Positions 2,281-63,212 of a stretch of 64,000 nucleotides of DNA are shown here, piece after piece (position 1 is the stretch's first letter; every line of letters starts with the position of its first letter). Under the pieces are notes generated by a model that saw only the letters and a program-made list of their open reading frames with translations, was not told the DNA's origin and did no database searches. Source of the DNA: Calditrichia bacterium (lineage in GTDB: Bacteria; Calditrichota; Calditrichia; RBG-13-44-9; J075); the NCBI GenBank assembly GCA_050633245.1, contig JBOEGD010000030.1, positions 32,001 to 96,000 on the forward strand, in the 5' to 3' direction. A program made the position numbers and the translations under genes.

Positions 2281-3804
2281 TTACTTCTTTTTGACGAATT
2301 CATATGTCATATCACCAAACGCTTCAGCAGAGAACACCAGTTTTTTTACAGAGTTCTCTATCGCAAAAAGTTGTACTTTTGCCGGGCTAAATTCTGGTCG
2401 GGAAAACGTACACAAAAAGCTGTCGTTACCGATCGGCTGTAACCTCCCGGACAACTGGTTTTGATGCTGCAAAAAGTTTAACGTTAAGCCAGAATCGGAT
2501 TGAGTAATCGATACGCTGCCATAGAGTTTATTGGCGTATTTCCCGCTAAATGCTTTTAACGTTTCAGGAGAAACCTGAATTATTCCTTCCTCAATTGTCT
2601 TCTGTGCTGCAAGCTCCGCCTGCCACTCCTCGGAAAACTCTGCCAAATAAGTAGTGCTGAAAGACTGATACGGTTCGTCTTGCAATGCATAGTGAAGCTC
2701 ATCTGCGACAGCTTCCGCAAAATTATGAGATCTTGAGTTCGTGAGCACAACAACACCAAAGCGCCTTTCCGGAAGCACCATTAGAAACGATTTAAATCCA
2801 TCTGTTCCTCCGTCATGAAAATACGTTAGATTATCGAACTCATCGTGAATAGACCATCCCATTCCAGAGAAAAAAAATCGTAGCTGATTGCTATTATCTT
2901 TTCGAGTACGATATCCTCGTAGTTGATAGGGCTTTCGGATGATCTTCATGCTGCGCTCCGAAAACACCCGTTTGCCATCAACCATCCCCATATCCATAAA
3001 GGCCATCATCCATTGGCACATATCCCTGGCAGTCGACGAGATAGAACCAGCCGGTCCCATATTGTCTATATTCTCTACCGAAAGTTCCAACAATGCATTG
3101 CCGTTTTTTAAATGCGGAGAGGCAATATTGGTATTTAATGGGATCTGGGAAGACAGTGCATAACTATTGTTCATTTTCAGAGGTAGAAAAAAGCGATCCC
3201 GTACTGCTTCTGCCCAACTGTTACCGATGGAACGTTTAATTACCACATTCAATAGCATGTAGGACAAGTTGTTGTAGATAAATTTTTGTCGGACTTGGTG
3301 TTGCGGTGAAAGCTCAGACAGGATATTTAATAGATGCTGCGTATCGTGTTCAGTTTTCCAAAAGAGAAAGTCGCCTTGATGGCTACCAAGACCGGTTCTC
3401 CCGGTTAATATATCCTCTACTATAATATGTTTAGAGGCAAGCCGGTTTTTTAACTGAAAATCCGGAATCCATTTCTTAATGGTATCATTTAGGGACAACG
3501 TATCGCTTTCACTAAGCAAAACCGTCGTCGCGCCAGTTATCGCTTTCGTAAGCGAACCAATCATAAATAGGGTATTTGAATCAACTCTTGTCTGCCTGCG
3601 AATGCTTTTTACACCATAGCCTTCACAGAAAATGATCTCTCCATCTTTTACCACTCCGATAGTGAGACCCGGGATATCCCAGCTCTTCAAACCATCTTGA
3701 ATATAGGTATCCAGGGAATCGTTGATGAAGGTGGAGAACCTACATGGTTGTGCCAGTACTGGGAATACGGCGCACAGAAGAAGAGCGATGGTGAGTCTAC
3801 TCAT
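2281..3804 (-). CDS. Secreted serine hydrolase (beta-lactamase family) with C-terminal DUF3471-like domain
   Basis: Signal peptide from MSRLTIALLL; SxxK (GSLTK), YxN (YNN) and HDGG motifs. Confidence 0.85.
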   Translation of the reverse strand: MSRLTIALLLCAVFPVLAQPCRFSTFINDSLDTYIQDGLKSWDIPGLTIGVVKDGEIIFCEGYGVKSIRRQTRVDSNTLFMIGSLTKAITGATTVLLSESDTLSLNDTIKKWIPDFQLKNRLASKHIIVEDILTGRTGLGSHQGDFLFWKTEHDTQHLLNILSELSPQHQVRQKFIYNNLSYMLLNVVIKRSIGNSWAEAVRDRFFLPLKMNNSYALSSQIPLNTNIASPHLKNGNALLELSVENIDNMGPAGSISSTARDMCQWMMAFMDMGMVDGKRVFSERSMKIIRKPYQLRGYRTRKDNSNQLRFFFSGMGWSIHDEFDNLTYFHDGGTDGFKSFLMVLPERRFGVVVLTNSRSHNFAEAVADELHYALQDEPYQSFSTTYLAEFSEEWQAELAAQKTIEEGIIQVSPETLKAFSGKYANKLYGSVSITQSDSGLTLNFLQHQNQLSGRLQPIGNDSFLCTFSRPEFSPAKVQLFAIENSVKKLVFSAEAFGDMTYEFVKKK

Positions 3805-19310: not shown

Positions 19311-19475
19311 TGGAGCATTGTTAGAATGGAGCAGTCTTGGGAGTTAAAGCGTTCGTACTTTATTAGAAAAAAAGAAGCAAATTTTGAATTGTTTTTTTTC
19401 TCTGCCCAAACTGGAGCATTGTTAGAATGGAGCAGTCTTAATTAGAAAAAAGATCTAAAATTTTGGACTTTTTTA
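19311..19475 (+). repeat. REP-like doublet element, copy 1 (28-bp repeats at 19311-19338 and 19412-19439)
   Basis: TGGAGCATTGTTAGAATGGAGCAGTCTT twice with a 101-bp period. Confidence 0.85.
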
Positions 19476-21183: not shown

Positions 21184-21211
21184 AAGACTGCTCCATTCTA
21201 ACAATGCTCCA
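21184..21211 (-). repeat. Single 28-bp REP-like repeat (reverse orientation)
   Basis: Exact reverse complement of 19311-19338. Confidence 0.85.
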
Positions 21212-38299: not shown

Positions 38300-38334
38300 A
38301 AAAAAAAACACGGCAGGCCAAAGACCTGCCGTGT
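38300..38334 (-). terminator. Intrinsic terminator (minus strand)
   Basis: ACACGGCAGG-TCTTTGG-CCTGCCGTGT followed by a T-run. Confidence 0.88.
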
Positions 38335-38377
38335 AACCCAAATAACCAAAACAAAGGAGAGAGAAGACTCACCTTCT
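38300..38377 (-). ncRNA. Candidate trans-acting sRNA (~78 nt)
   Basis: Own -10 and activator site, 5' hairpin, single-stranded C/U- and G/U-rich seed, intrinsic terminator, and long complementarity to two distant loci. Confidence 0.65.
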
Positions 38378-38383
38378 TATGAG

Positions 38384-38426
38384 AATATACACCGTGAACT
38401 TACGTTACCATGTGATACCCTGCACA
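38384..38426 (-). promoter_or_regulatory. Class II CRP/FNR-type activated promoter of the candidate sRNA
   Basis: -10 TATATT (38389-38384); TGTGC-N6-TCACA (38426-38411) centred at -41.5 for +1 at 38377; poor -35. Confidence 0.55.
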
Positions 38427-38565
38427 AAAAGTTTACTTTCTCCCCCTTGCAACCCAACTAAAGATACATCATTTTTTTTCTATTTACAATCCACAACATA
38501 TAATTCTTCAAAAAACGCTCATCAGGCGTTATCTTTGCCCCTGTAAACCACAAAGAAACAGCATG

Positions 38566-51035: not shown

Positions 51036-52760
51036 TCAGCGAACGAGCAGCATCTTTTTTACCTCGATATTCCCATCAAACTGCATTCGGTAAAGATAGA
51101 CTCCGCTTGCGAGATTCGCAGCGTCAAAGGACAGCTGATACTGTCCGGCTGCGCGGGATTCGTTTAATAATATCGCTACGGTTCGACCAAGCGGGTCGAC
51201 AACATCAATGTAAATCGATCCCGATTGCCGGGTAGCAAACTCGATAGTCGTAGCCGGGTTAAACGGATTCGGATAGTTTTGCTTTAGTTCGAAGGATTTG
51301 GCAACAGCTGAAGTTGTAGGCTCAAGTCCTGTTAACACCGGAGACATTGAGCGAAAGACGCCACTACCATTGGTTCCGGCATAAACATGGCCAGCATTAT
51401 CAACCACAAAGGACCAGACGCCCGCATTTGTCAGACCGTCGTTAAAGGGCACCCAATTAGCACCTGCATCATCAGAGCGGAAAATGCCAGCCCCGTGGCT
51501 GGCAGCCAACATGTATGGTCCGGCTTCAAGAATATCCATTACGTGCGTATTGGGAAGAGCAATTTGCGACCAGCTAACTCCGGAATAGCGATAGATACCA
51601 TCAAACCAGGCACCCGCTAAAAAGCCGCCAGCGACATCAGGCTCTAACGTGCGCACATCAATTCCAGAGAGTCCAATAAGATCCCAGGAATCTCCACGAC
51701 TACTGCTGCTGTAAAGGCCTTCACCTGCCGTTCCGGCAAAAACATCACCAGATTGATCAACCGCAATCTTGTAAACAATGGTGCTCAATAAACTCGGGTC
51801 AGATTTATTCTCCCAATTTAGACCACTGTCTTCCGAACGAAAAACACCACTCAATACAGTTCCGGCATAAACTTCACCCGCAGGCGCTTCAGCCATAGTT
51901 AGAACAACTGAACTGCCCAAGCCATTATTTGCCTGTGTCCAATTCAACCCATTATCGTTACTTCGAAAAATGCCATCACCATTTGTAGCGGCGAACAGGT
52001 TACCAGACTGCGTGGCTATCAGATCTAAAACGTCGAGATTCGATAGGCCGGTATTTCGTTGGGTCCACTCGGACATGCCATTCTCGGAGAAGAATACGCC
52101 ACCGGTATCACTTGCAACAAAAACGCCATTAGACGTACTGACCATCGCATTCACAATAATATTATTCAGATCGGTGTGAATCCAGTCTACCCGCTCAATG
52201 TTACTGCCACCAGCTTCCAGAATCCACAGTCCACGCTCTGTATCCAGCGCAATTAAAACTCCATCGACAAATGCAATATCTGTCAGGAGCCTATTGTTTA
52301 AAGGAATATTTATCTCAGTCCAGGCACGCCGGTTTTTATAAATCACTACGATACGTTGATCATTGGTAAGGGCATAAAAGGCTTCATCTGAGACGGTAAT
52401 TGCAAGAGGTCTTTGAGAGGCCTCATAAGCAGGCACACGAAAGGAAGGTGATTTTGCATTCTCCTGCAGCTGTTTGTTAAATCGTGTTAGAAGAGTTGCT
52501 TCAATATTTTCAACCGTTCCATCGATGCGCACCCAGTTGAGTCCACGATCGGCGGATTGCCAAAAGCGTTGTCGACTTTCATGTGTGGCAGTAAGCAGGC
52601 GACCGTTATCGGATCCGGTGATTGAAACAGCTTCAGAAGGAAGCGCGCTCCCGGATTGTTGCCAGCTGGCAATCTGCGAATGGCCTGGTGTGATAAGGAA
52701 GAATAATAGCAGGCAAACGATTAAGCTGCCTGGGGCTATATGAAGAAATATGTTTTTCAT
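51036..52760 (-). CDS. Secreted BNR/YCF48-type beta-propeller protein with T9SS-like C-terminal domain
   Basis: Signal peptide; repeated GIFRSxDxGxNW; QNYPNPFNP...ASGVYLY..KKMLLVR. Confidence 0.85.
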   Translation of the reverse strand: MKNIFLHIAPGSLIVCLLLFFLITPGHSQIASWQQSGSALPSEAVSITGSDNGRLLTATHESRQRFWQSADRGLNWVRIDGTVENIEATLLTRFNKQLQENAKSPSFRVPAYEASQRPLAITVSDEAFYALTNDQRIVVIYKNRRAWTEINIPLNNRLLTDIAFVDGVLIALDTERGLWILEAGGSNIERVDWIHTDLNNIIVNAMVSTSNGVFVASDTGGVFFSENGMSEWTQRNTGLSNLDVLDLIATQSGNLFAATNGDGIFRSNDNGLNWTQANNGLGSSVVLTMAEAPAGEVYAGTVLSGVFRSEDSGLNWENKSDPSLLSTIVYKIAVDQSGDVFAGTAGEGLYSSSSRGDSWDLIGLSGIDVRTLEPDVAGGFLAGAWFDGIYRYSGVSWSQIALPNTHVMDILEAGPYMLAASHGAGIFRSDDAGANWVPFNDGLTNAGVWSFVVDNAGHVYAGTNGSGVFRSMSPVLTGLEPTTSAVAKSFELKQNYPNPFNPATTIEFATRQSGSIYIDVVDPLGRTVAILLNESRAAGQYQLSFDAANLASGVYLYRMQFDGNIEVKKMLLVR

Positions 52761-52949
52761 GGCGTCAGTTGGGTTTAGTGAAACTTCGATGATTTTGTTT
52801 ATTCACTTATATCGGCAGAATTTAATTCTACTTTTCCCGACAAATCGCCTGTTCCCGTAAAAAGATAAGGTACATCTTTGCTTTTTCAAAACGTGAAAGG
52901 CTTTTGCCTAAAATTCGATAAGACCCCTAAGAGTTCTCAAGTAATCTAC

Positions 52950-52966
52950 ATCAAATGCTATGCCAG
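52950..52966 (-). promoter_or_regulatory. Sigma54-type promoter (-24/-12)
   Basis: CTGGCATAGCATTTGAT on the minus strand. Confidence 0.65.
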
Positions 52967-53065
52967 CTAATAGCAGCAAAGCAAAAAACAAACACAGGTT
53001 GTTGTTTATTAAAAACTTAAATCCAAAAATCCAGTTAAGCATTCTCGTATATAAAAAAGACTCGC

Positions 53066-53099
53066 TGCAAATTTTGCAGCGAGTCTTGCAGGATATGCA
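53066..53099. promoter_or_regulatory. Tandem enhancer (UAS) sites TGCA-N5-TGCA
   Basis: 53066-53078 and 53087-53099, 21 bp apart. Confidence 0.6.
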
Positions 53100-53107
53100 A
53101 CTTTTAT

Positions 53108-53144
53108 GGAAAAGGCAGACCGGCTTAGCCGGCCCGCCTTTTCC
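53108..53144 (-). terminator. Terminator hairpin after the DUF4397 gene
   Basis: GGAAAAGGCGGGCCGGC-TAA-GCCGGTCTGCCTTTTCC; G-U pairs fit the minus strand. Confidence 0.7.
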
Positions 53145-53170
53145 GGGGTCCGTCCCTTGGGTTCCATGGG

Positions 53171-56100
53171 TTATTTGGACAACACCATTTTTCGGGAGGA
53201 TACAAATGAGCCTGCATTTATTTGATAGAAATAAACACCCGACGGGAACTGTGCAGCATTAAAGTCCAGTGTGTAAGCACCAGCACTCTGACGCTCACTT
53301 ACCAGGGTTGCTACTTTCTGTCCGGCAATGTTGAAGATAGTAACAGTTACGTCGCTTGATTGCGGAATAGAGTAGCGGATCGTAGTCGTCGGGTTGAACG
53401 GATTCGGATAGTTCTGCTCAAGCTCGAAGTTATTGATCGTTCCATCGAGCAGATCATCCTCAATACCTACGATTGGCGAGAACTCTACTACATCGCCATT
53501 TGGCAGTGCAGCAAAGAGTCCAAAAGCAGGACCGTTCTGGTTTGCTGAAGGCGTTAGGAAGCCAGAGGCAAAAACCTGAGCGGCTCCACCGGCAAGACCG
53601 GAAAGGTCAGCAGTAAAAGAAGCCACTACGGTTGAACCACTCGCATCCGTTACATCGAGTGTGTATGAAGCAGCAGGGACGCCAACATATCCCGTAATGT
53701 CACCATATGCCGCGTCGTCTACCAAGGTTGCAACACCGCGCGCAACGACGTCGACAGTTGGTGCATCGGAGGAGCCATGCAGCGCAGAGAACTCAACTGT
53801 ATTAACATCAGTAGAAGCTTCTTGACCTGTTGGATTGATGAACAGACCGAAAGCAGTACTTCGTCCATCCGGGTTCGGAGCAAATGCACTCGGATCGAGA
53901 ACACCATTGGCAATAACCACATAGGTCTCACCAGGAGTCAGAGTTACATTGAAATTAGCTAATGTATCACCAACACCACCGCTATTCGGACCGGCAACAC
54001 CAATGTCAATCGGCGTGCCCGCAGGTGCATCAATAAATGCAGTGGCATCACGGAAGGCAAAATCATCAAGAAGAATTCCACCGTTAAGATAAATATCAAC
54101 AACTGCTGCGCCAGGATCAGCGGCATTGTGAATGACTTGAACACGCGCTGTGTTGATCGCAGGAAATTCTACGATGTCACCCGTTGGTAAGGCTGCGAAT
54201 AAACCGAAAGCTGCGCCATTTTGATTTGCTGAAGGATCTAAAAATCCGGAAGCGAAAACAGTAGCGGCTCCGCCGGCGAGTCCCGAAAGATCAGCGGCGA
54301 AGGATGCGACCGTTACTGCTCCGCTTCCATCTTTTACGTCTAATGTATATGCTGCAGGGGGAACACCAATATAGCCGGTGATGTCACCATATGCTGCGTT
54401 GTCTACCAGTGTCGCAACACCCCGCGCATCAACATCAACAGTCGGCGCATCGGAAGAACCATGAACAGCAGCGAATTCAACGGTTGCCGGATCGCTGGAA
54501 GCTTCCTGGCCAACCGGATTAATAAATAAACCAAAAGCAGTGCTACGGCCATCAGGGTTCGGAGCAAAAGCTGTTGGATCGAGAACACCATTGGCAATGA
54601 TTACATACGTTTCACCAGCTGTAAGCGTCGCAGTAAAGTTCGCAAGCGTATCGCCTACACCGCCACTGTTAGGGCCAGCAACACCAATATCAAGCGGCGT
54701 GCCCGCAGGAGCATCAATAAATGCTGTTGCATCGCGGAAAGCAAAGTCGTCTAGAAGAAGTCCGCCGTTTAGGTAGACATCGACAATCGCTGCTGCCGGG
54801 TCGGCTGCATTGTGAATAACTTGAACACGGGCGGTTGTGATTGCCGGGAACTCTACAACATCACCTGTAGGTAAGGCTGCAAATAGCCCGAAAGCTGCAC
54901 CGTTTTGATTTGCTGAAGGATCCAGAAAACCGGAGGCGAACACCTGGGCTGCCCCGCCGGCAAGTCCGGAAAGGTCAGCTGCAAAGGACGCTACGGTTAC
55001 AGTACCTGTTGCATCTTTTACATCAAGCGTATAAGCTGCTGGTGGGACACCAACGTAACCGGTAATGTCGCCATAAGCTGCATCATTTACCAGAGTAGCA
55101 ACGCCGCGGGCATCGACATCAACTGTGGGCGCATCGGAAGAGCCATGTAAGGCAGAAAACTCAACCGTCGCTGGATCGGTGGATGCTTCCTGACCGAGTG
55201 GGTTTACGAACAGGGTAAAAGCAGTACTACGACCATCAGGGTTCGGCGCGAAAGCTGTTGGATCAAGAACACCGTTGGCGACAACAACGTAGGTCTCACC
55301 TGGTGTCAAAGTCACATTAAAGTTAGCAAGCGTATCGCCTACGCCACCACTATTCGGGCCAGCGACACCTATATCAATTGGTGTACCTGCAGGCGCATCG
55401 ATAAATGAAGTAGCATCGCGGAAAGCAAAATCATCAAGAAGAAGACCGCCATTGAGATACACATCCACAAGCGCAGCGCCTGGATCAGCCGCATTGTGAA
55501 TTACCTGGACTCGAGCAGTATTCGCTGCAGCACTTCCTTTATGAATAACGTGATCGACCCACAAATTGTCTGATGAGCTTCCTGAAGGACCTCCATCAGT
55601 TATGTAATAATTGATGGCGACGAATGGCTCGCTACCGGCAAATGCAGACATATCAAACGCATAACGATTCCAGGAACTAACAGGGCCATCGACTTTAAAG
55701 TAGCCAACAAGGTCTGTAAAGCTACCAAGTGAACTGTCGGTAGTCGAAACCCAAACACGAAGCGAATCAGGAAAATTACCATCGATTGCGCCAGCATAAA
55801 AGATTAGACTATCACCAGACTCAACGGCCGGTAATTGAGGTGAGATGATATATTCATCAATCAGAAACCCATTCGCATTATTAAAGCTGCTGAAAAAGAA
55901 ACTTTGTCCGGCTTCCGGGAAAATAGAATCACCGCTGAGAAAACCGACATCTTGACGAAATTCCCATCCGGCACCACTGCCGTCGTTATCAATCAACTGC
56001 CAACCGGCGGGCAGCGTAGTGGTATCAAATGTTTCTTCAAACTTAACGTTTTTCTCAGCAGCAACTTCCTGATTGCCGGGAACACCGCGCTCAAATTCAG

Positions 56101-56200
56101 TCGCGCGAATGCGATCTACAATTTCATCCTGCGCCAATAACGACATTGGCAGAACAAAAGCTGCAATCAGCAAACCTCGTAGTAAAACAGTAAACTTCAT
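53171..56200 (-). CDS. Secreted protein: cleaved-adhesin-like domain + 3 tandem DUF4397-type repeats + T9SS-like C-terminal domain
   Basis: ATG at 56200 with SD GGAGG; signal peptide; GWQLIDNDG..DEYIISP; ARVQVIHNAADP three times at a 684-nt period; QNYPNPFNP. Confidence 0.85.
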   Translation of the reverse strand: MKFTVLLRGLLIAAFVLPMSLLAQDEIVDRIRATEFERGVPGNQEVAAEKNVKFEETFDTTTLPAGWQLIDNDGSGAGWEFRQDVGFLSGDSIFPEAGQSFFFSSFNNANGFLIDEYIISPQLPAVESGDSLIFYAGAIDGNFPDSLRVWVSTTDSSLGSFTDLVGYFKVDGPVSSWNRYAFDMSAFAGSEPFVAINYYITDGGPSGSSSDNLWVDHVIHKGSAAANTARVQVIHNAADPGAALVDVYLNGGLLLDDFAFRDATSFIDAPAGTPIDIGVAGPNSGGVGDTLANFNVTLTPGETYVVVANGVLDPTAFAPNPDGRSTAFTLFVNPLGQEASTDPATVEFSALHGSSDAPTVDVDARGVATLVNDAAYGDITGYVGVPPAAYTLDVKDATGTVTVASFAADLSGLAGGAAQVFASGFLDPSANQNGAAFGLFAALPTGDVVEFPAITTARVQVIHNAADPAAAIVDVYLNGGLLLDDFAFRDATAFIDAPAGTPLDIGVAGPNSGGVGDTLANFTATLTAGETYVIIANGVLDPTAFAPNPDGRSTAFGLFINPVGQEASSDPATVEFAAVHGSSDAPTVDVDARGVATLVDNAAYGDITGYIGVPPAAYTLDVKDGSGAVTVASFAADLSGLAGGAATVFASGFLDPSANQNGAAFGLFAALPTGDIVEFPAINTARVQVIHNAADPGAAVVDIYLNGGILLDDFAFRDATAFIDAPAGTPIDIGVAGPNSGGVGDTLANFNVTLTPGETYVVIANGVLDPSAFAPNPDGRSTAFGLFINPTGQEASTDVNTVEFSALHGSSDAPTVDVVARGVATLVDDAAYGDITGYVGVPAASYTLDVTDASGSTVVASFTADLSGLAGGAAQVFASGFLTPSANQNGPAFGLFAALPNGDVVEFSPIVGIEDDLLDGTINNFELEQNYPNPFNPTTTIRYSIPQSSDVTVTIFNIAGQKVATLVSERQSAGAYTLDFNAAQFPSGVYFYQINAGSFVSSRKMVLSK

Positions 56201-56331
56201 AGAAGCCTCCAGATAAGATAGGGTTTTGGTTATTTGGGTTACACTTAAATTATCATACATACGTTGACTGCCTTGGGTTGAAGCAGACTTCGCTAAATAG
56301 TCAATTCGAAACCGCTTATGCCCGTTTTAAT

Positions 56332-56348
56332 ATCAAAGGTTGTGCCAA
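56332..56348 (-). promoter_or_regulatory. Sigma54-type promoter (-24/-12)
   Basis: TTGGCACAACCTTTGAT on the minus strand. Confidence 0.7.
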
Positions 56349-56436
56349 CGACAAAAGGGGGACAAGCAAACCCATGCTAAATAGACACTTAGAACAAAAA
56401 AGGCGAGATGGGCCGAGTTAAGAGGATCTGCTGAAA

Positions 56437-56470
56437 TGCAAAATTTGCAGCAGTGATTGCAGAATTTGCG
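56437..56470. promoter_or_regulatory. Tandem enhancer (UAS) sites TGCA-N5-TGCR
   Basis: 56437-56449 and 56458-56470, 21 bp apart. Confidence 0.6.
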
Positions 56471-56498
56471 AACGATAAGCGTTTTGCGCGTTCAGCAA

Positions 56499-57269
56499 TT
56501 AGAAGCGGATTGTAAGGCCAACTGAAGAAGTGGAGAGATTGGGCTGGATTGAGATAGATTCATCTTTAATCTGACTAAAGAATATTGCATCAATATGAGA
56601 ACTTAGCCATACGGATGCCAGGGCGTAGCCCCAGTAAAACTGACGCTGATATGAGTCATTGTATGTGTTGTAGCGAGATTCAAGAAGAGCGCGATCCGTT
56701 TCATTGATATACTCGTCGAAGCGGGTTTGTGTATTCAAGATAGACTGCCCGGTGCCGGTAATAGAAATTACTCCCATTGTAGCCCAGACAATGCCTTTAA
56801 TCTTATAGCCTCGGCGATATTGTTCCCAACCGGGAAAAACCAATGACCGCCAGGGTCGATTCTCTTTTTCAAAAGCCATTGCTGCTTCAATTGCGCTAAG
56901 GCGTTGTTGGATAGCAACAGCATAGTCCAGCTTAGCTTGTTGAAATACAAGTAAGATTTTGGGTGAAGTCGTTAATCGATCCAGCTCGATCGTCGGGTCG
57001 ATATCAAGCATCTGCCTGAAATAACTACGCGCAACTTCACTGTCATCGTTTTGGATGCGCTGAAAAGCACCGTAGCGATATATCTCTACCTGTACATCAG
57101 CCGGGTATTTTTGCGGTTGTTCGAAAGCTTTTTCGAGCAGACTATCTAATGCACTATAGTTGAAATTGTCGTAGGCAGATTTTAGCTCATCAGCCAGGCT
57201 TGATGACTGGCTAAAAACCGGAGCCACGAGAACAGACAGGAAAAGCGCTATGGTGAGTTTTTCTATCAT
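56499..57269 (-). CDS. Secreted/membrane protein with TPR-like N-terminus and DUF5683-like C-terminus
   Basis: Signal peptide; ARSYFRQMLDIDP..SPKI; RSLVFPGWEQY..KG; terminal LTIRF. Confidence 0.7.
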   Translation of the reverse strand: MIEKLTIALFLSVLVAPVFSQSSSLADELKSAYDNFNYSALDSLLEKAFEQPQKYPADVQVEIYRYGAFQRIQNDDSEVARSYFRQMLDIDPTIELDRLTTSPKILLVFQQAKLDYAVAIQQRLSAIEAAMAFEKENRPWRSLVFPGWEQYRRGYKIKGIVWATMGVISITGTGQSILNTQTRFDEYINETDRALLESRYNTYNDSYQRQFYWGYALASVWLSSHIDAIFFSQIKDESISIQPNLSTSSVGLTIRF

Positions 57270-57394
57270 ACAGAGCTTATCTGAATCAAAGGGTTATCAG
57301 TTATTCCTAGCCTGTTAATATACGCAGGAAAAACGAATTCGCTTCAAAAAAAGTTCCGAGTTTTGCCGGAAAAAGAGTATCCTGAATTGAGAGC

Positions 57395-57425
57395 AACAGG
57401 AGCAGTTTCGAAAACTTCTCCTGTT
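57395..57425. repeat. REP-like palindrome, GGAGCAGTTT family
   Basis: AACAGGAGCAGTTTCGAAAACTTCTCCTGTT. Confidence 0.65.
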
Positions 57426-57465
57426 TTGGAAAAGGGGTTTCTTTAAATTGTAAAAGAACAAACAC

Positions 57466-57630
57466 TGGAGCATTGTCAGAATGGAGCAGTCTTGGGATTT
57501 TTGAGACTCTGTACTTAATTATAAAAAAGACATGAAATTTTGAAAAATATATTCAAAATCTCACATTGGAGCATTGTCAGAATGGAGCAGTCTTTATTAT
57601 AAAAAACACCGAAAATTTTGAAAAAAAAAT
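57466..57630 (+). repeat. REP-like doublet element, copy 2 (28-bp repeats at 57466-57493 and 57567-57594)
   Basis: TGGAGCATTGTCAGAATGGAGCAGTCTT twice with a 101-bp period. Confidence 0.85.
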
Positions 57631-57636
57631 AAAGTT

Positions 57637-59313
57637 TTAGCGCAAATTCAACGTCACACGACGTGTCAGCGTATCACCTTTTACAATCGTAATGCGGTCT
57701 TTTCGATTCTGTTGCGGATGTCGAAGCTCCAGCAAATATGAACCGGGTGCTAACATAAGAGGTTTTTTGAGGGGTGTAGTGCCGTACAGCTTATTATCAA
57801 TATACACATCTGCCCACGGACGAACCGAGAGCTCCAAATATCCCATATTATTATAAAACGACCAGCTTAACTCCCGTGAACTTCCCGCTTCTATAGTCAC
57901 CAAATTTACACTTGGCGGAAAGTTTGGATGTGTTAATCGAATGGAGTGCTGTCCCGCAGGTAAGCTGAGTTCCAAGTTTGATGCACGAGCCTCAACCTTT
58001 TTCTCATCAACAAATACCGAAGCCCAAGGATCAACATTCAAAATCAATTTCCCCGGCGCAACAGCTAAAACATCTTCCATCAAACTATCATTCGTTTGAA
58101 CCTCTCCACGCTCTGATTCCTCTTCAGAAAAGTCCTTTCGACTTAAACCACTGGACAAATCACTTTGTTGTTCAGGAACAATTTCGCCTAAACCCGCTTG
58201 CTCTTCCACGCCCCTTACAACACGAGAAATATCCGCGATTAGAGAATCGGACTGTATGAACGAGCTATCCACAAAGCTCTGCCCAGGATCTTCGTCAACT
58301 GAAATTTTTGCCGCAATTGACTGCTGCATCAGCACAGCGACAAAAGCCAGCAGCGTCAGTAGAGCAACACCGCCGGCAACCAGTGGCCAACGCTTTCTTC
58401 GTGCCACAACCGCAGCAATTTCTCCACTCGGTTTCAATACCCGTTGGTGTTGCTCTGCGAATTTTGACAATAGTTCGGATATTGCACCAAAGTCGCCTCT
58501 ACGCAAACCTTGCAGCGCATTCCGTGCTTCAGATGCCGAAGACCAACGTTCATCCGCGCGCTTCGCCAGCAGCTTTGTGATAAAGGCTATCTCTGTATCT
58601 GTTAGATCTTTACGTAGCTGAGCCAGAGGCTGAGGGTCTTCATTGAGAATCTTATGCAAACAAGCCGTAAAGCTCTCACCTTCAAACGCCTGCTTACCAG
58701 TAAGCAGCTCATACAAAACGCATCCAAGCGAAAATAAATCGGCGCGCCCATCAGGGTCGTCACCAGTAATTTGCTCTGGGGACATATAGGCCGGAGATCC
58801 AACCATCGCATCTTGGTGAGTCACGGTCGAGTCTCCTTCAACGCGTGCAAGCCCAAAATCCGTGACCTTTAGTTTGCCATTCATTGCGAGCAGCACATTA
58901 GCCGGCTTGATGTCTCGGTGTGTAACTCCGGCGGCATGCGCATAATTCAATGCCTGCAATATTTCATCTGCCATTTGGAAAACAACTTCGGCCTCCAGCT
59001 GACCATTCTTCTCCAAAAGCTCTTCGAGGTTTAGCCCATCGACGTATTCGAGTATAATGTAGTGATACCCTTGCTCTTCACCAAGCTTGTGCACGTCTAC
59101 AATATGAGGATGCTTTAACCTGGCACAAGCACGCGCTTCTTTCTGGAAACGCTTAACACGATCTTCCTCCCCCTCAATTCCGGGGCGCAGCAACTTCACC
59201 AATACTCTTCTTTGCAAATTGGACTGTTCGCCAATCGCGACAAGATTGTACGGACCAACATAAATTATGTTGGTCAATTGCACATCACCGATTGTTGAGA
59301 AGGGAAGATGCAT
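57637..59313 (-). CDS. Hanks-type Ser/Thr kinase with a TM helix and C-terminal PEGA-like domains
   Basis: VLVK, HRDIKPAN, DFG, GSPAYMSPE; TM segment WPLVAGG..; PWADVYIDNKLYGTTP. Confidence 0.92.
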   Translation of the reverse strand: MHLPFSTIGDVQLTNIIYVGPYNLVAIGEQSNLQRRVLVKLLRPGIEGEEDRVKRFQKEARACARLKHPHIVDVHKLGEEQGYHYIILEYVDGLNLEELLEKNGQLEAEVVFQMADEILQALNYAHAAGVTHRDIKPANVLLAMNGKLKVTDFGLARVEGDSTVTHQDAMVGSPAYMSPEQITGDDPDGRADLFSLGCVLYELLTGKQAFEGESFTACLHKILNEDPQPLAQLRKDLTDTEIAFITKLLAKRADERWSSASEARNALQGLRRGDFGAISELLSKFAEQHQRVLKPSGEIAAVVARRKRWPLVAGGVALLTLLAFVAVLMQQSIAAKISVDEDPGQSFVDSSFIQSDSLIADISRVVRGVEEQAGLGEIVPEQQSDLSSGLSRKDFSEEESERGEVQTNDSLMEDVLAVAPGKLILNVDPWASVFVDEKKVEARASNLELSLPAGQHSIRLTHPNFPPSVNLVTIEAGSSRELSWSFYNNMGYLELSVRPWADVYIDNKLYGTTPLKKPLMLAPGSYLLELRHPQQNRKDRITIVKGDTLTRRVTLNLR

Positions 59314-59314
59314 G

Positions 59315-60802
59315 TTAATCCTGAATATCCCACTCTTTAGTTTTGTAGTGCACCCAGCGGAGGGAAACGCCCATCATCTCAGCGGTATGCGTTTTATTTC
59401 CTTCGCAAGATCGCAGTGTCTTCAACAGTAAAATACGAGAGACATCGTCTAACGTCATTCCAGAATCAATCCGATCTTGCTGCTGAAGACCGCGCACAAT
59501 AACATCCGATTCCTGAATTTCTTCCCCCGAAGACAATACAACAGCACGTTCAATTGCGTTTTCCAGTTCCCGCACATTGCCGGGCCAGCCATAAGCCTGT
59601 AATGAATCCATTACATCCGATGCAAACCCATGCCTGCGTTTCCCCATAGCAGTAGCAAACTTCTTCAGGAAGTGCTCGGCAAGCAGTGGAATATCACTTT
59701 TACGCTCACGCAGCGGTGGCAATTCGATTAGAATAATGCTCAGTCGATAATACAAATCTTCACGAAAGCGACCTTCGCGCACCTCATCGGCTAAATTGCG
59801 GTTCGTTGCCGCAATAATGCGCACATCAACTTTTTTAGGGGAGGCACCGCCAATAGGCATAATCTCTTTTTCCTGTAGGAAGCGCAGTAGCTTCGCCTGA
59901 AGACTCATTGGGATTTCAGCAATTTCATCTAAAAAAAGCGTTCCGGAGTTCGCAACCTCAATTAGACCTTTTTTATCGGCATTAGCACCGGTAAAAGCTC
60001 CCTTTTTGTAACCATACAGCTCGCTTTCCAACAAGTTTTCCGGTAGCGCGGCACAGTTAACGGGAATAAAGGGTCGGTCTTTACGCATGCCATTATAGTG
60101 AACCGCGCGGGCAATCAACTCTTTTCCGGTACCCGTTTCACCAACAATTAGCACCGTTGTCGAATTGTCCAGCACCTTCTTAATAATGTCAAAAACCGGC
60201 TGCATCGACTTGCTTGAACCAACGAGCTCTTTAAACGAGTAAATGCGATTCACTTCCTCTTTCAGCACTTCGTTTTCCTGCCGAAGCGATGCCAGAAGTC
60301 TGGCATTTTCAATCGCGATTCCTGCCTGGTTTGCAAACGCGGCCAAAAAGTCCAGGCTCTTTTGATTGAATCGCGCTTTCTGCCCACGACTGTCAATATA
60401 AATAGCGCCGATTAAAGTACCCTTTATTTCCAGTGGCACGCAGGCAATGGAACGAATTTTTTGCATCACCACCGAATGAGATTGATCAAACTGCTCATCC
60501 GTTAGTGCATCAAATGTAAGGATGGGCTTTTGAGCCTTTATCACACTTTCAATAGCCGTGCTGGAGATTTCACTGCTGTCTGCGCTCTTGCCGCTATCAT
60601 CTGTCCGCGAAGCTTTCGGAACGAGTTCTTCATCATCTCCTTCTTTCAACAACACAAACCCGCGTTCTGCCGAAAGCTGCTTAATGGCAATCTCAAGAAT
60701 GCGCGACAAGAGCGATTCCAGGTTCTGAATGGAATTAATCTCGGCACTCACTTCCACAAGTGCGGATAGATACTGTTCAGGAATGTTCAGAGCATTACTC
60801 AT
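59315..60802 (-). CDS. Sigma54-dependent enhancer-binding protein (GAF-AAA+-HTH)
   Basis: GAF domain, GETGTGKE, GAFTGA, LFLDEI, WPGNVREL, Fis-type HTH. Confidence 0.93.
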   Translation of the reverse strand: MSNALNIPEQYLSALVEVSAEINSIQNLESLLSRILEIAIKQLSAERGFVLLKEGDDEELVPKASRTDDSGKSADSSEISSTAIESVIKAQKPILTFDALTDEQFDQSHSVVMQKIRSIACVPLEIKGTLIGAIYIDSRGQKARFNQKSLDFLAAFANQAGIAIENARLLASLRQENEVLKEEVNRIYSFKELVGSSKSMQPVFDIIKKVLDNSTTVLIVGETGTGKELIARAVHYNGMRKDRPFIPVNCAALPENLLESELYGYKKGAFTGANADKKGLIEVANSGTLFLDEIAEIPMSLQAKLLRFLQEKEIMPIGGASPKKVDVRIIAATNRNLADEVREGRFREDLYYRLSIILIELPPLRERKSDIPLLAEHFLKKFATAMGKRRHGFASDVMDSLQAYGWPGNVRELENAIERAVVLSSGEEIQESDVIVRGLQQQDRIDSGMTLDDVSRILLLKTLRSCEGNKTHTAEMMGVSLRWVHYKTKEWDIQD

Positions 60803-60824
60803 ACAGCCTCTGCTTTCTATATAC

Positions 60825-61796
60825 TTAGTTTGAAATGATCAGGAAGCGTTCGCGAGAGCGGCTGCGATTGCCAATATTATCTTCTACCCCGATTGTCCAC
60901 TCGTAGCGGCCGTTTTGTAGTGCAGGAAGAGAATCCGGCCAAACAAGTTCCAGAGTTGAAGGCGAGATGTCTCTTGCGGTAAACCGCTCCACTGGAATCC
61001 CAAGATTCAACCGCACAACCTCCAGTGTAAAGCTATAGCTGAAGCCGGCAGAAAAGTTGTGCCATCTGAATAGTGGGCGTGCACTTGCGGTATCGGATTG
61101 TGCCGGAGCCAGAGCCAACGGAATATCGTTTATGATTCGTCGTAGAAAAAATGGCCCTGAAGTTACTCGACTTCCGGGAATATCGGTAAGTGTAAAAAAG
61201 GCATTCTTTTCAACAAGCGGTATCAGGCTAAGGCTAAATGCAGGATCAGTATCAGGAATGATCAGCTCAAACTGATTTGGCGCAACGCGATTCGCCGCAC
61301 GGCGGAATGGTATATCGGGGATTTCAATAATCAAGCTATCCAAATCAAAGTCGCCATCTGAGTCCTCTGCATTTAATGTGATAACCGCTTCCACAAAACG
61401 TCCCGGAATTGTGGTGTCGACATTTCGACTGGTATAGCTAAAGCTGCGGACCTCAGGCAGTCCATTCAGCACAAAGTTTCGATTCGAGATATTACCATTT
61501 GCCGGTAGATCCACGATAAGCGTATCAGCCTCAAATAATGGACGTTCTGCAATTGCGCGATACTGTCCCGGTGGAATACCGGTAAACTCGAAACGCCCAT
61601 CGGCATCGGTGAATACAAAGCGATCGAGCGGCTGCAGCGTAACCTTAACTCCGGAAAGCGGATCGCGAGGTTGATAAAAGGAAAATGCCCAACCCTCAAT
61701 ACTACCACTGGAAACACTGTCCAGTGGGTTTTCGCGAGGCGCATCAGGAACGCAACCAGCTGTAAGGAAAAATAATGTTAGCAGTATCCGTTTCAT
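60825..61796 (-). CDS. Lipoprotein with a carboxypeptidase-regulatory-like domain
   Basis: Lipobox TAGC, PRENPLD, TDADGRFEF..PPGQY. Confidence 0.75.
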   Translation of the reverse strand: MKRILLTLFFLTAGCVPDAPRENPLDSVSSGSIEGWAFSFYQPRDPLSGVKVTLQPLDRFVFTDADGRFEFTGIPPGQYRAIAERPLFEADTLIVDLPANGNISNRNFVLNGLPEVRSFSYTSRNVDTTIPGRFVEAVITLNAEDSDGDFDLDSLIIEIPDIPFRRAANRVAPNQFELIIPDTDPAFSLSLIPLVEKNAFFTLTDIPGSRVTSGPFFLRRIINDIPLALAPAQSDTASARPLFRWHNFSAGFSYSFTLEVVRLNLGIPVERFTARDISPSTLELVWPDSLPALQNGRYEWTIGVEDNIGNRSRSRERFLIISN

Positions 61797-61860
61797 TTTT
61801 TCCAGTAACTCGGTGATCGATGATGAGTTTGCTCAACTATCAGGTTAAACCATCGCTTTG

Positions 61861-61883
61861 GCTTCGACTCCGCTCAGCCTGAC
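61861..61883. repeat. Short REP-like element (CTTCGACTCCGCTCAG type)
   Basis: GCTTCGACTCCGCTCAGCCTGAC; degenerate relative near 29366 (CTTCGACAAGATTTAGCCT). Confidence 0.4.
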
Positions 61884-61904
61884 GCGAGTTAACGTCTTGC
61901 GCCG

Positions 61905-63212
61905 CTAAACCACATAGTTCTCGAGCGCATCTTTGTACGTTTTCAATACTCGCTCACGAGCAAATTTATGTTCTACAATCGCATTGGGATACTCTAACGA
62001 ATTAAGCTCTGGTACCCACTTTTTTATATACTTCAACTCTGAGTCAAACTTTTTAACCTGTGTGTACGGATTAAATACTCGAAAATAAGGTGCAGCATCA
62101 CATCCACAACCTGCAGACCATTGCCAGTTTCCATTATTAGCAGACAGCTCAAAATCCAGCAGCTTACGAGCAAAATATGCTTCGCCCCAACGCCAATCGA
62201 TTAACAAATGCTTCACGAGAAAACTTGCTGTAATCATACGAACGCGATTGTGCATAAATCCGGTGGTATTGAGTTCACGCATCCCGGCATCGACAATCGG
62301 ATAGCCCGTTTTACCATCGCACCACGCCTGAAATTCCCGCTCATTATTACGCCAGGGAATATCACTGTATTTTTTCTTAAACGGACTCCCAACGACATAA
62401 GGAAAATTCCAAAGAATCATCATAAAGAATTCACGCCAAATCAACTCATCCAGCCAGGTTTCGTTTAACTCCAGCGCTCGGCGAACCAGACGACGAATGC
62501 TTATCGTACCAAATCGCAGGTGAACACTCAAGCGCGTTGTACCATCTACGCTCGGAATATCTCTGGTATCGTGATAGCTCTGTACCAGCTCTTCACGAAG
62601 TTCAGCTGAAGGAAATTCCTGTCCTGCCGCTGCAAAGCCAAGTGACTCGAGGCTTGGTATTTCAAACGCAGTCGTCGACAGAAAGTTTTCCACCTCTTCC
62701 GATGGATGAGAGCGAATATGCTCTCCCATCAGGAAGCTGCGCCATTTATTCTTGAACGGTGTATAAACAGTGTATGGTGTTTCCTGCGCAGTCAAAATCT
62801 CCGTCTTTTCAAAAATTACCTGATCTTTGAAGGTGCGGAATTCAATTCCTTTTTCACGAAGCATCGCTTCAACAGCCTCATCACGAGAACGAGCGTAGGG
62901 TTCGTAATCGTGATTCGTATATACCGATGCAATTTCGAACTCATTCATAAGCTGCTGCCAGACTTCAATCGGCTTGCCATGGGCAACTAACAACGAACTC
63001 CCTTTTTCCTTGAGAGACCGATTGATTTCGCTAAGATGATGATGGATGAATTCGACACGACGATCATCTCGATCCTCTAACTTCTCCAGAATCGTCGAAT
63101 CGAAGATAAAAAGTGGTAATACGGGCAGCTCGCCCTTCAATGCAGCATGTAGTCCAACGTTATCTTCAAGACGAAGATCACGTCGAAACCAGAAAACGGC
63201 TATTTTTGACAT
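61905..63212 (-). CDS. phrB: Deoxyribodipyrimidine photolyase (class I CPD)
   Basis: WFRRDLRLEDN, ELIWREF, GFMHNRVRM, PYFRVFNP. Confidence 0.93.
   Translation of the reverse strand: MSKIAVFWFRRDLRLEDNVGLHAALKGELPVLPLFIFDSTILEKLEDRDDRRVEFIHHHLSEINRSLKEKGSSLLVAHGKPIEVWQQLMNEFEIASVYTNHDYEPYARSRDEAVEAMLREKGIEFRTFKDQVIFEKTEILTAQETPYTVYTPFKNKWRSFLMGEHIRSHPSEEVENFLSTTAFEIPSLESLGFAAAGQEFPSAELREELVQSYHDTRDIPSVDGTTRLSVHLRFGTISIRRLVRRALELNETWLDELIWREFFMMILWNFPYVVGSPFKKKYSDIPWRNNEREFQAWCDGKTGYPIVDAGMRELNTTGFMHNRVRMITASFLVKHLLIDWRWGEAYFARKLLDFELSANNGNWQWSAGCGCDAAPYFRVFNPYTQVKKFDSELKYIKKWVPELNSLEYPNAIVEHKFARERVLKTYKDALENYVV

Follow-up and report, generated by a model that had tools for sequence, protein, structure and literature searches.

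On balance, a 64,000-nucleotide stretch of a Calditrichia bacterium genome (assembly GCA_050633245.1, contig JBOEGD010000030.1, G000:C30:32001-96000), referred to as the window, appears to carry one copy of a conserved envelope-to-promoter signalling module. In this module, a membrane Ser/Thr kinase would act on a GAF-type sigma-54 activator, and the activator on the sigma-54 promoter of a gene encoding a secreted protein (cargo 1). The genome comprises 6.35 Mb in 59 contigs and belongs to the phylum Calditrichota. The transcriptional half of the proposal, consisting of the activator, an enhancer pair, the promoter and cargo 1, is well supported by sequence comparison. The signalling half, leading from envelope proteins through the kinase to the GAF domain, is suggested by a consistent gene neighbourhood, and the clauses on a second cargo gene (cargo 2) and on a candidate small RNA (sRNA) are the weakest.

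The four-gene cassette

According to the open reading frame (ORF) map and Pfam, positions 51036-63212 of the window are occupied by seven ORFs, all co-oriented on the minus strand. Four of them form the cassette, namely a lipoprotein-type gene (60825-61796, 323 aa, CarboxypepD_reg E 5.8e-10), the gene of a sigma-54 activator (59315-60802, 495 aa), that of a Hanks-type Ser/Thr kinase (57637-59313, 558 aa) and that of a TPR/DUF5683-like membrane protein of 256 aa (56499-57269). Cargo 1 (53171-56260) and cargo 2 (51036-52760) follow, and the gene content described in the initial annotation is thereby present in full. A single base separates the stop codon of the activator (59315-59317) from the ATG of the kinase (59313-59311).

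The activator possesses GAF (E 3.8e-16), Sigma54_activat (E 3.4e-71), AAA_lid and HTH_8 (E 4.3e-07, a Fis-type HTH) domains according to Pfam. Walker A (GETGTGKE), Walker B (LFLDEI) and an intact GAFTGA motif (KKGAFTGA) are readable in its translation, and by its sequence the protein is a member of the sigma-54 activator family, also called bacterial enhancer-binding proteins. Pfam detected no FHA or receiver domain in the activator at E<=0.01, and neither PF00498 (FHA) nor PF00072 (receiver) was present among its best 120 listed GAF relatives, in agreement with the initial annotation, which had described the activator as lacking both. With the defining domain tested and absent, the activator is, as judged from its sequence, neither of the FHA type nor an NtrC-type response regulator. 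Public GAF relatives carry the automatic name 'Nif-specific regulatory protein', and the names on them include Calditrichaeota, KSB1, Bacteroidetes and Rhodothermales. The recognition helix of the helix-turn-helix (HTH) domain differs among the cassette groups, and the palindromes beside paralogous cassettes differ too, which fits separate DNA specificities.

By its sequence, the kinase is a Hanks-type Ser/Thr protein kinase, with matches to Pkinase (E 1.6e-48) and, over two stretches, to PEGA (E 8.4e-10). Topology, signal peptides and lipobox were read from sequence alone. In the kinase, a cytoplasmic kinase domain is followed by one hydrophobic segment (approximately residues 309-329), a low-complexity linker and two C-terminal PEGA domains. 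Residues K40 (catalytic Lys), E59 (alphaC Glu), H132-R133-D134 (HRD), N139, D152-F153-G154 (DFG) and P179-E180 (APE-type) are invariant in 24 out of 24 kinase relatives.

Conservation of the cassette and paralogous copies

A first sample covered 20 loci around kinase matches in 15 other genomes of the family. The four-gene cassette was complete in fourteen of them, and the activators of these complete loci share 62-67% identity with that of the window when they are its counterparts, and 45-48% when they belong to paralogous cassettes. Regarding the incomplete loci, the 256-aa gene is displaced in L018, L005, L010 and L012 are cut by a contig end, and L013 and L015 have no detectable lipoprotein gene. 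In other families of the phylum, nine out of twelve sampled loci were complete; L058 and L064 are cut by a contig end, and L061 possesses neither activator nor kinase. A scan of one genome per species gave 26 loci, twelve of which are titled Bacteroidota, Ignavibacteriota, Chitinophagaceae or Spirochaetaceae. Six of these twelve loci, all from metagenome-assembled genomes, were complete (L037, L038, L040, L041, L043 and L044, the 256-aa gene of L044 being known by a tblastn match only). The remaining ones possess three genes (L036, L046), are cut (L039, L042, L045) or lack the kinase (L047). These counts bear out the conservation of the cassette, the first check proposed in the initial annotation.

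The profile of the 256-aa family was found in 78 of the 86 genomes of the phylum, including 50 of the 53 high-quality ones. Complete single-contig genomes of the phylum also carry the module, for example G021 (L054, L055). Among 1.84 billion proteins, 509 representative clusters belong to the 256-aa family at E<=1e-30.

The genome of the window harbours four paralogous cassettes, on contigs C30 (the window), C36, C7 and C4, each with a lipoprotein, GAF activator, PEGA kinase and 256-aa protein gene. In this genome, the lipoprotein, double-PEGA and 256-aa profiles each gave exactly four strong matches, all of them inside the four cassettes. A Kelch-repeat protein of approximately 430 aa with a secretion domain is encoded in three of the four cassettes, and the window copy is the one without it.

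In the region C36:51471-54330 (L048:1471-4330), divergent promoters of the sigma-54 type, together with palindromes of the form GTGCAC-N5-GTGCAC, lie ahead of the C36 cassette. A membrane protein resembling cytochrome b and a multihaem cytochrome c are the products of the divergent unit, and this copy of the module may control electron-transfer genes rather than secreted adhesins. Adjacent to the C4 cassette, the gene at C4:153152-155677 (L050:4152-6677, minus strand) encodes a protein of 841 aa in which a CHASE2 membrane sensor is fused directly to a sigma-54 interaction domain, with no HTH_8 match listed. By its domain order it is a membrane-anchored activator, which is unusual in the family. 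A TGGCATcgcgcTTGT promoter and a gene for an outer-membrane beta-barrel are located downstream of it.

In the window, the gene immediately upstream of the lipoprotein gene encodes a photolyase (61905-63212, minus strand, Pfam). The same arrangement was present in L002, L008 and L020, the two ORFs of L008 abutting by one base, and co-transcription of the cassette with the photolyase gene is possible in these genera.

Sigma-54 promoters and enhancer-like sites

The genome possesses one rpoN gene, the presence of which the initial annotation had asked to be confirmed, and 33 sigma-54 activators. A sigma-54-type promoter, TGGCACaacctTTGA, is located upstream of cargo 1 at 56347-56333, with the enhancer-like pair CGCAAATTCTGCA and TGCAAATTTTGCA at 56437-56449 and 56458-56470, approximately 90-125 bp ahead of it. 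Cargo 2 has the promoter TGGCATagcatTTGA at 52965-52951, and the pair TTGCATATCCTGCAA and TGCAAAATTTGCA at 53066-53078 and 53086-53100. All these elements are on the minus strand and were read from the sequence. The palindromes are of the TGCAAA-N-TTTGCA type, and the pair lies approximately 90-135 bp upstream of each cargo promoter, with centres 21 bp apart.

In the window alone, the search for TGGCAC-N5-TTGC with one mismatch gave 5 matches versus 4.3 expected, which is not above chance; the significance of the promoter and enhancer finding comes from genome-wide and cross-genome counts. The pattern TGGCAY-N5-TTG[AC] occurs 68 times in the genome. Thirty-five of these matches fall in the 10.6% of the genome outside the crude ORF map, in most cases 16-100 nt before a gene; TTGA replaces the canonical TTGC in 21 of the 35. 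A non-canonical -12 element is thus usual in this genome, and TGGCACaacctTTGA and TGGCATagcatTTGA are of the local type.

The exact 13-mer TGCAAANTTTGCA occurs five times in 6.3 Mb, four times outside ORFs, and two of the sites belong to the cargo genes. Contig C9 carries a third exact site, again as a member of such a pair, which is followed by TGGCACatggtTTGT and then by a gene encoding a protein with four DUF4397 domains (E 4.3e-79), a domain also found in cargo 1. On contig C20, a one-mismatch site and TGGCACcatgaTTGC are located ahead of the gene of a cadherin/Big_9 protein with a secretion domain.

Across genomes, the 700 nt downstream of the 256-aa gene were scanned in 22 loci for a composite, consisting of a site with at most two mismatches to TGCAAANTTTGCA and GGYAY-N5-TTG 50-220 nt further on. 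The composite was present in 18 of the 22 loci, the misses being L007, L035, L042 and L045. Both strands of the whole genome contain 20 composites, which corresponds to approximately 0.001 expected per 720-nt stretch. In eleven loci the sites are paired at a spacing of 20-22 bp. The cargo gene behind the promoter varies by lineage and encodes DUF4397 proteins, CarboxypepD_reg-repeat proteins or others. Since the cassette, the sites and the promoter are kept while the cargo changes, the activator of the cassette itself is predicted to serve the promoter, and this composite count is the strongest result of the analysis. The link between the activator and cargo 1 is well supported by these sequence counts, and the predicted link to cargo 2 is weaker. 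The initial annotation had claimed a sigma-54 promoter with matching enhancers at both cargo genes. This holds for cargo 1, where both are conserved across genomes, and less so for cargo 2, which has no counterpart in two out of two related loci.

The divergent intergenic region on C9 that contains the third enhancer pair also harbours adjacent octamer arrays, (GGCAGAAA)n then (CCTTGTCT)n, at 60330-60520 (L051 approximately 3330-3520). A composite match at C11:451174 lies inside an ORF and was taken as chance.

Cargo proteins and type IX secretion

Cargo 1 (1029 aa, minus strand) possesses Cleaved_Adhesin, six DUF4397 and Por_Secre_tail domains. Its translation probably starts at the ATG at 56200, where GGAGG is found 6 nt before and a signal peptide after the codon. 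Cargo 2 (574 aa, minus strand) possesses beta-propeller repeats and, similar to cargo 1, Por_Secre_tail (E 2.2e-11 and 4.2e-10 in the two proteins). A 2102-aa frame matching SprA_N (E 4.7e-43) represents an SprA-type translocon gene; GldM_1st was not found in the genome. As judged by a sorting domain and a translocon in the genome, both proteins are type IX secretion cargo. The two cargo proteins have matches in at least 200 ORFs of the genome, the majority of those listed covering the C-terminal domain only, and the predicted secretome is very large for a phylum outside Bacteroidota.

Pairing of kinases with GAF activators

The genome was searched with local profiles for the GAF, AAA+ and kinase domains. 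A strong N-terminal GAF domain of the cassette clade (E<=8e-26) was found in six of the 33 activators, and in six out of six cases a kinase gene is located on the same strand within 1.4 kb. Among the 25 activators without GAF domain, one has a kinase within 3 kb, namely the kinase of the adjacent C4 cassette. The two activators with weak GAF matches have no kinase gene alongside. The six GAF-paired kinases differ in their sensors: the four kinases of the cassettes carry PEGA, a 1397-aa kinase carries FG-GAP/BNR and a 659-aa kinase CHASE2. The pair with the FG-GAP kinase is located on contig C8.

In the fetched loci, the kinase gene directly follows the GAF activator in 32 out of 41 cases. The gap is at most 10 nt or the ORFs overlap in 27 of these 32 adjacent pairs, where gaps were taken from longest-ORF starts and overlaps are possibly overstated. 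The neighbourhood is strong evidence that the kinase and the GAF clade would act on each other, as histidine kinases pair with receiver domains. It is also the basis on which the claim of the initial annotation that the kinase controls the activator now stands, through the pairing of all six GAF activators and the tight gaps. Residues S80, T82 and S110 (numbers of the window protein, counted by hand) and a GxIYxD strand are common to the kinase-linked GAF domains, and are absent from the unlinked GAF activator on C14. As residues of interest in the GAF domain, S80, T82 and S110 are only a lead.

In the region G000:C1:274160-277359, a 435-aa protein possesses a GAF domain of the same clade (E 1.3e-43) and no AAA+ domain. 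Its gene is convergent to, and overlaps the end of, another Ser/Thr kinase gene. This could possibly be a seventh kinase-GAF pair, with a different output.

Envelope proteins

The lipoprotein-type protein has a signal-peptide-like start ending in FLTAGC, with Cys15 invariant in 27 out of 27 relatives. Its AlphaFold2 model shows three tandem beta-sandwich (Ig/FnIII-like) domains, with a mean confidence (pLDDT) of 92.4. The fold search returned generic tandem Ig/FnIII arrays of adhesins and receptors and gave no functional clue. A match of 77.8 bits had pointed to a special tie of the lipoprotein with the C7 cassette's cargo; this reading was dropped, as the match reflects the shared CarboxypepD_reg domain, present in eight copies in that cargo.

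The 256-aa protein matches DUF5683 (PF18935) with E 0.023 and 15.2 bits, below the gathering cut-off of 26.7. Among 16 relatives, DUF5683 was matched in eleven (E<=1, best 4.3e-09) and TPR_2 in seven. The TPR/DUF5683-like label given in the initial annotation is therefore backed by the relatives and not by the protein's own DUF5683 match. The AlphaFold2 model is all-helical (pLDDT 86.6) and consists of a signal-peptide helix, a TPR-like domain (25-90), a long helix (103-136) and a helical hairpin. The hairpin is formed by two helices of 33-38 residues flanking an invariant PGWxQ motif; at its tip, which is predicted to be cytoplasmic, Y187 and Y203 are invariant and Y200 is nearly so. A fold search of the PDB with this model gave nothing at E<=0.001, and only short peptide-binding TPR domains at E approximately 0.25 for the N-terminal part. 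A protein atlas places a Myxococcota TPR cluster near the 256-aa protein (score 0.95), which serves only as a lead.

A 256-aa-like neighbour gene follows six of the seven kinases with a PEGA match. These include two further PEGA kinases without activator, each followed by a weaker 256-aa-like gene. The FG-GAP and CHASE2 kinase-activator pairs have no 256-aa or lipoprotein partner, and the module thus splits into two sets. The putative sensor set comprises the PEGA ectodomain, the TPR/DUF5683 protein, the lipoprotein and often the secreted Kelch protein, and the putative transmission set comprises the kinase domain and the GAF activator. Gene neighbourhood suggests that the PEGA ectodomain functions together with the lipoprotein and the TPR protein, as had been proposed, and these proteins may be in contact with one another.

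Candidate small RNA

A candidate sRNA was located at approximately 38300-38460 on the minus strand, with a stem-loop, a 22-nt antisense stretch, a terminator stem and a U-run. Plus-strand positions 38331-38352 are identical over 22 nt to minus-strand positions 56244-56223, and therefore a minus-strand transcript at 38.3 kb would be perfectly complementary to the leader of cargo 1. The rest of the genome contains nothing closer to this stretch than four mismatches. The target (56223-56244, minus strand) probably belongs to the cargo 1 leader, with 13 nt between it and the GGAGG that precedes the ATG at 56200. Downstream of the antisense stretch, a 12-bp terminator stem (38334-38308) and a U-run are present. 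A 191-nt stretch at this place folds far better than its shuffles (z -6.4), with the antisense stretch largely unpaired. No Rfam family was detected anywhere in the window, the candidate sRNA included. Of the features of an Hfq-type trans-acting sRNA, the seed complementary to a target leader and the intrinsic terminator are present. It is a good candidate from its sequence, and a putative gate of cargo 1.

In L002, L008, L010 and L020, the promoter of the cargo 1 orthologue is followed by a leader motif, GAGCG(T/A)TTTGAGCGAT. This motif is absent from the leader in the window, which has the 22-nt target.

Proposed mechanism and alternative explanations

In the reading that we favour, the GAF-AAA+-HTH activator would bind the pairs of TGCAAA-N-TTTGCA sites 21 bp apart and, with sigma-54 RNA polymerase, open the -24/-12 promoter of the type IX cargo gene that comes next after the cassette. 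The activator would probably also open the promoters of cargo 2 and of the DUF4397 protein on C9, and perhaps that of the cadherin-like cargo on C20. Its input would be the membrane Ser/Thr kinase encoded one base after it. The kinase would most likely phosphorylate the GAF domain or the linker, lifting a repression of the ATPase similar to that in NorR; the abstract of PMC2941729 describes the NorR GAF domain as repressing the AAA+ domain. Sensing would be carried out by the two periplasmic PEGA domains, together with the TPR/DUF5683-like protein and the three-domain lipoprotein. We infer the phosphotransfer, the envelope contacts and the direction of control.

A wider generalisation, which we put forward tentatively, is that the GAF clade may be a dedicated receiver for Hanks-type receptor kinases. 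Such a Ser/Thr 'two-component system' would have exchangeable sensors (PEGA with the TPR/DUF5683 partner and the lipoprotein, FG-GAP, or CHASE2) and be widespread in Calditrichota, Ignavibacteriota, KSB1 and Rhodothermales-type bacteria. Through it, the condition of the cell envelope or surface would govern the sigma-54 transcription of single surface proteins secreted by the type IX route, and no FHA adaptor of the myxobacterial kind would be involved.

Several observations weigh against the favoured reading. The cassette contains no phosphatase, FHA domain or known kinase-docking motif, so that no route from the kinase to the activator is visible in the sequence. The cassette activator of L036 lacks residues of the S80/T82/S110 type, the kinase is missing from L047 and both activator and kinase from L061, and in L021 and L063 the kinase is represented by two ORFs. 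Regarding the promoters, the -12 element is without the canonical GC, L007 and L021 have no downstream cargo promoter, and no promoter can be recognised at the fourth intergenic exact site, C11:449816. Upstream of the cargo 2 orthologues in L002 and L020, both site and promoter are missing. In the window, the cargo 2 enhancer TGCAAAATTTGCA forms the loop region of a hairpin with a 14-bp stem that is followed by T's, and this hairpin also resembles a terminator for cargo 1. For the candidate sRNA, no consensus sigma-70 promoter was found, and in 15 related genomes no match extended beyond approximately 20-27 nt. The gating of cargo 1 by this RNA, part of the initial annotation, thus keeps the 22-nt complementarity, the terminator and the fold, and is not accompanied by conservation in those genomes.

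The absence of an FHA or docking motif from the activator also fits an explanation that we consider unlikely, in which the activator does drive the cargo promoters and responds, through its GAF domain, to a small ligand in the cytoplasm, similar to NifA, NorR and FhlA. The kinase would then act on something else, such as secretion components or the hairpin tip of the 256-aa protein, with kinase and activator as parallel branches, on the output or the input side, of a single operon. Binding of ligands or metals is known for the GAF domains of characterised activators, and the presence of the invariant Y187 and Y203 and the nearly invariant Y200 at the cytoplasmic hairpin tip fits this explanation. 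However, the pairing of six out of six activators of the GAF clade with kinases of three sensor types, versus no other activator, and the tight coupling of the ORFs are hard to explain without mutual action.

NifL holds NifA and PspA holds PspF as anti-activators. A comparable sequestration instead of phosphotransfer, with the kinase domain or the cytoplasmic hairpin of the 256-aa protein as a membrane anti-activator that releases the activator upon an envelope signal, would also account for the kinase-activator neighbourhood, and the hairpin tip is conserved. Nonetheless, we regard it as improbable: the catalytic residues of the kinase are invariant in all 24 relatives, which argues for catalysis, and a 256-aa partner is missing from the pairs with FG-GAP and CHASE2 kinases. 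With 33 activators in the genome, another one could serve the promoters, and the position of the cassette beside the cargo would be mere conserved synteny. This is very improbable, as the enhancer and promoter follow the cassette in 18 of the 22 loci across phyla while the cargo protein changes.

Comparison with known systems

Sigma-54 activators are controlled by histidine kinases, ligands and anti-activators, and in myxobacteria through FHA domains. Similar to NifA, NorR and FhlA, the activator of the window has the order GAF-AAA+-HTH, an intact GAFTGA, upstream palindromic sites and a -24/-12 promoter. In contrast to them, no nif, nor or hyc genes are nearby, the proposed partner is a Hanks-type membrane kinase instead of NifL or a ligand, and the predicted output is type IX cargo. 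The cassette shares with the FHA-type activators of Myxococcus xanthus that Ser/Thr kinase signalling is proposed to feed a sigma-54 activator, but no FHA domain was found here, nor among the best 120 listed GAF relatives. The work of Jelsbak et al. from 2005 is reportedly the one cited for the myxobacterial link between FHA activators and Ser/Thr kinases. As in NtrB-NtrC, a sensor kinase gene lies beside a sigma-54 activator gene, the enhancer sites are in tandem and the kinase sensors are modular; however, the kinase is of the Hanks Ser/Thr type and not a histidine kinase, and GAF takes the place of the NtrC receiver. In Porphyromonas, PorX/PorY and SigP, that is, a histidine kinase, a response regulator and an extracytoplasmic function (ECF) sigma factor, regulate type IX secretion genes. 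Like the module proposed here, this is a dedicated signalling system for type IX secretion-related genes, but the components differ.

The literature search, with most subscription journals outside its coverage, revealed no description of a Hanks or Ser/Thr kinase paired with a GAF-type sigma-54 activator, and no PEGA kinase tied to sigma-54. Type IX secretion and sigma-54 were not joined in substance in the literature found, the sole co-mention concerning Aliivibrio quorum sensing. The searched passages of PMC3162934, PMC12288465 and PMC12316311 contain no mention of kinase-GAF activator pairing, Calditrichota or type IX secretion. Thus, no published description of the four-gene cassette was found, and its component families (sigma-54 activator, Hanks kinase) are known. 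If correct, a direct and widespread pairing of eukaryote-like receptor kinases with GAF activators would add a further input route to sigma-54 activators, and the module would represent the first regulatory logic for single type IX cargo genes outside Bacteroidota. The module is compact, and its predicted binding site and promoter are defined to the base.

A repeated intergenic element

The gap between the kinase and the 256-aa gene in the window (57270-57636) measures 366 bp, compared with 0-236 nt in related loci, and contains two copies of a 26-nt core. With at most five mismatches, this core occurs at 54 places in the genome, 50 of them outside ORFs. Further copies in the window are located at approximately 51026, at 19336-19437 and at 21186. 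The copies are often paired approximately 100 bp apart and lie 3' of a T-rich, TATAAT-like stretch. A variant of the core that is located shortly after cargo 2 forms a perfect hairpin. The core is also present in many contigs of a relative's contig run, in which only short pieces of repeats and of the C-terminal domain were found. It could represent an intergenic element, either mobile or carrying a promoter, or else a family of RNAs.

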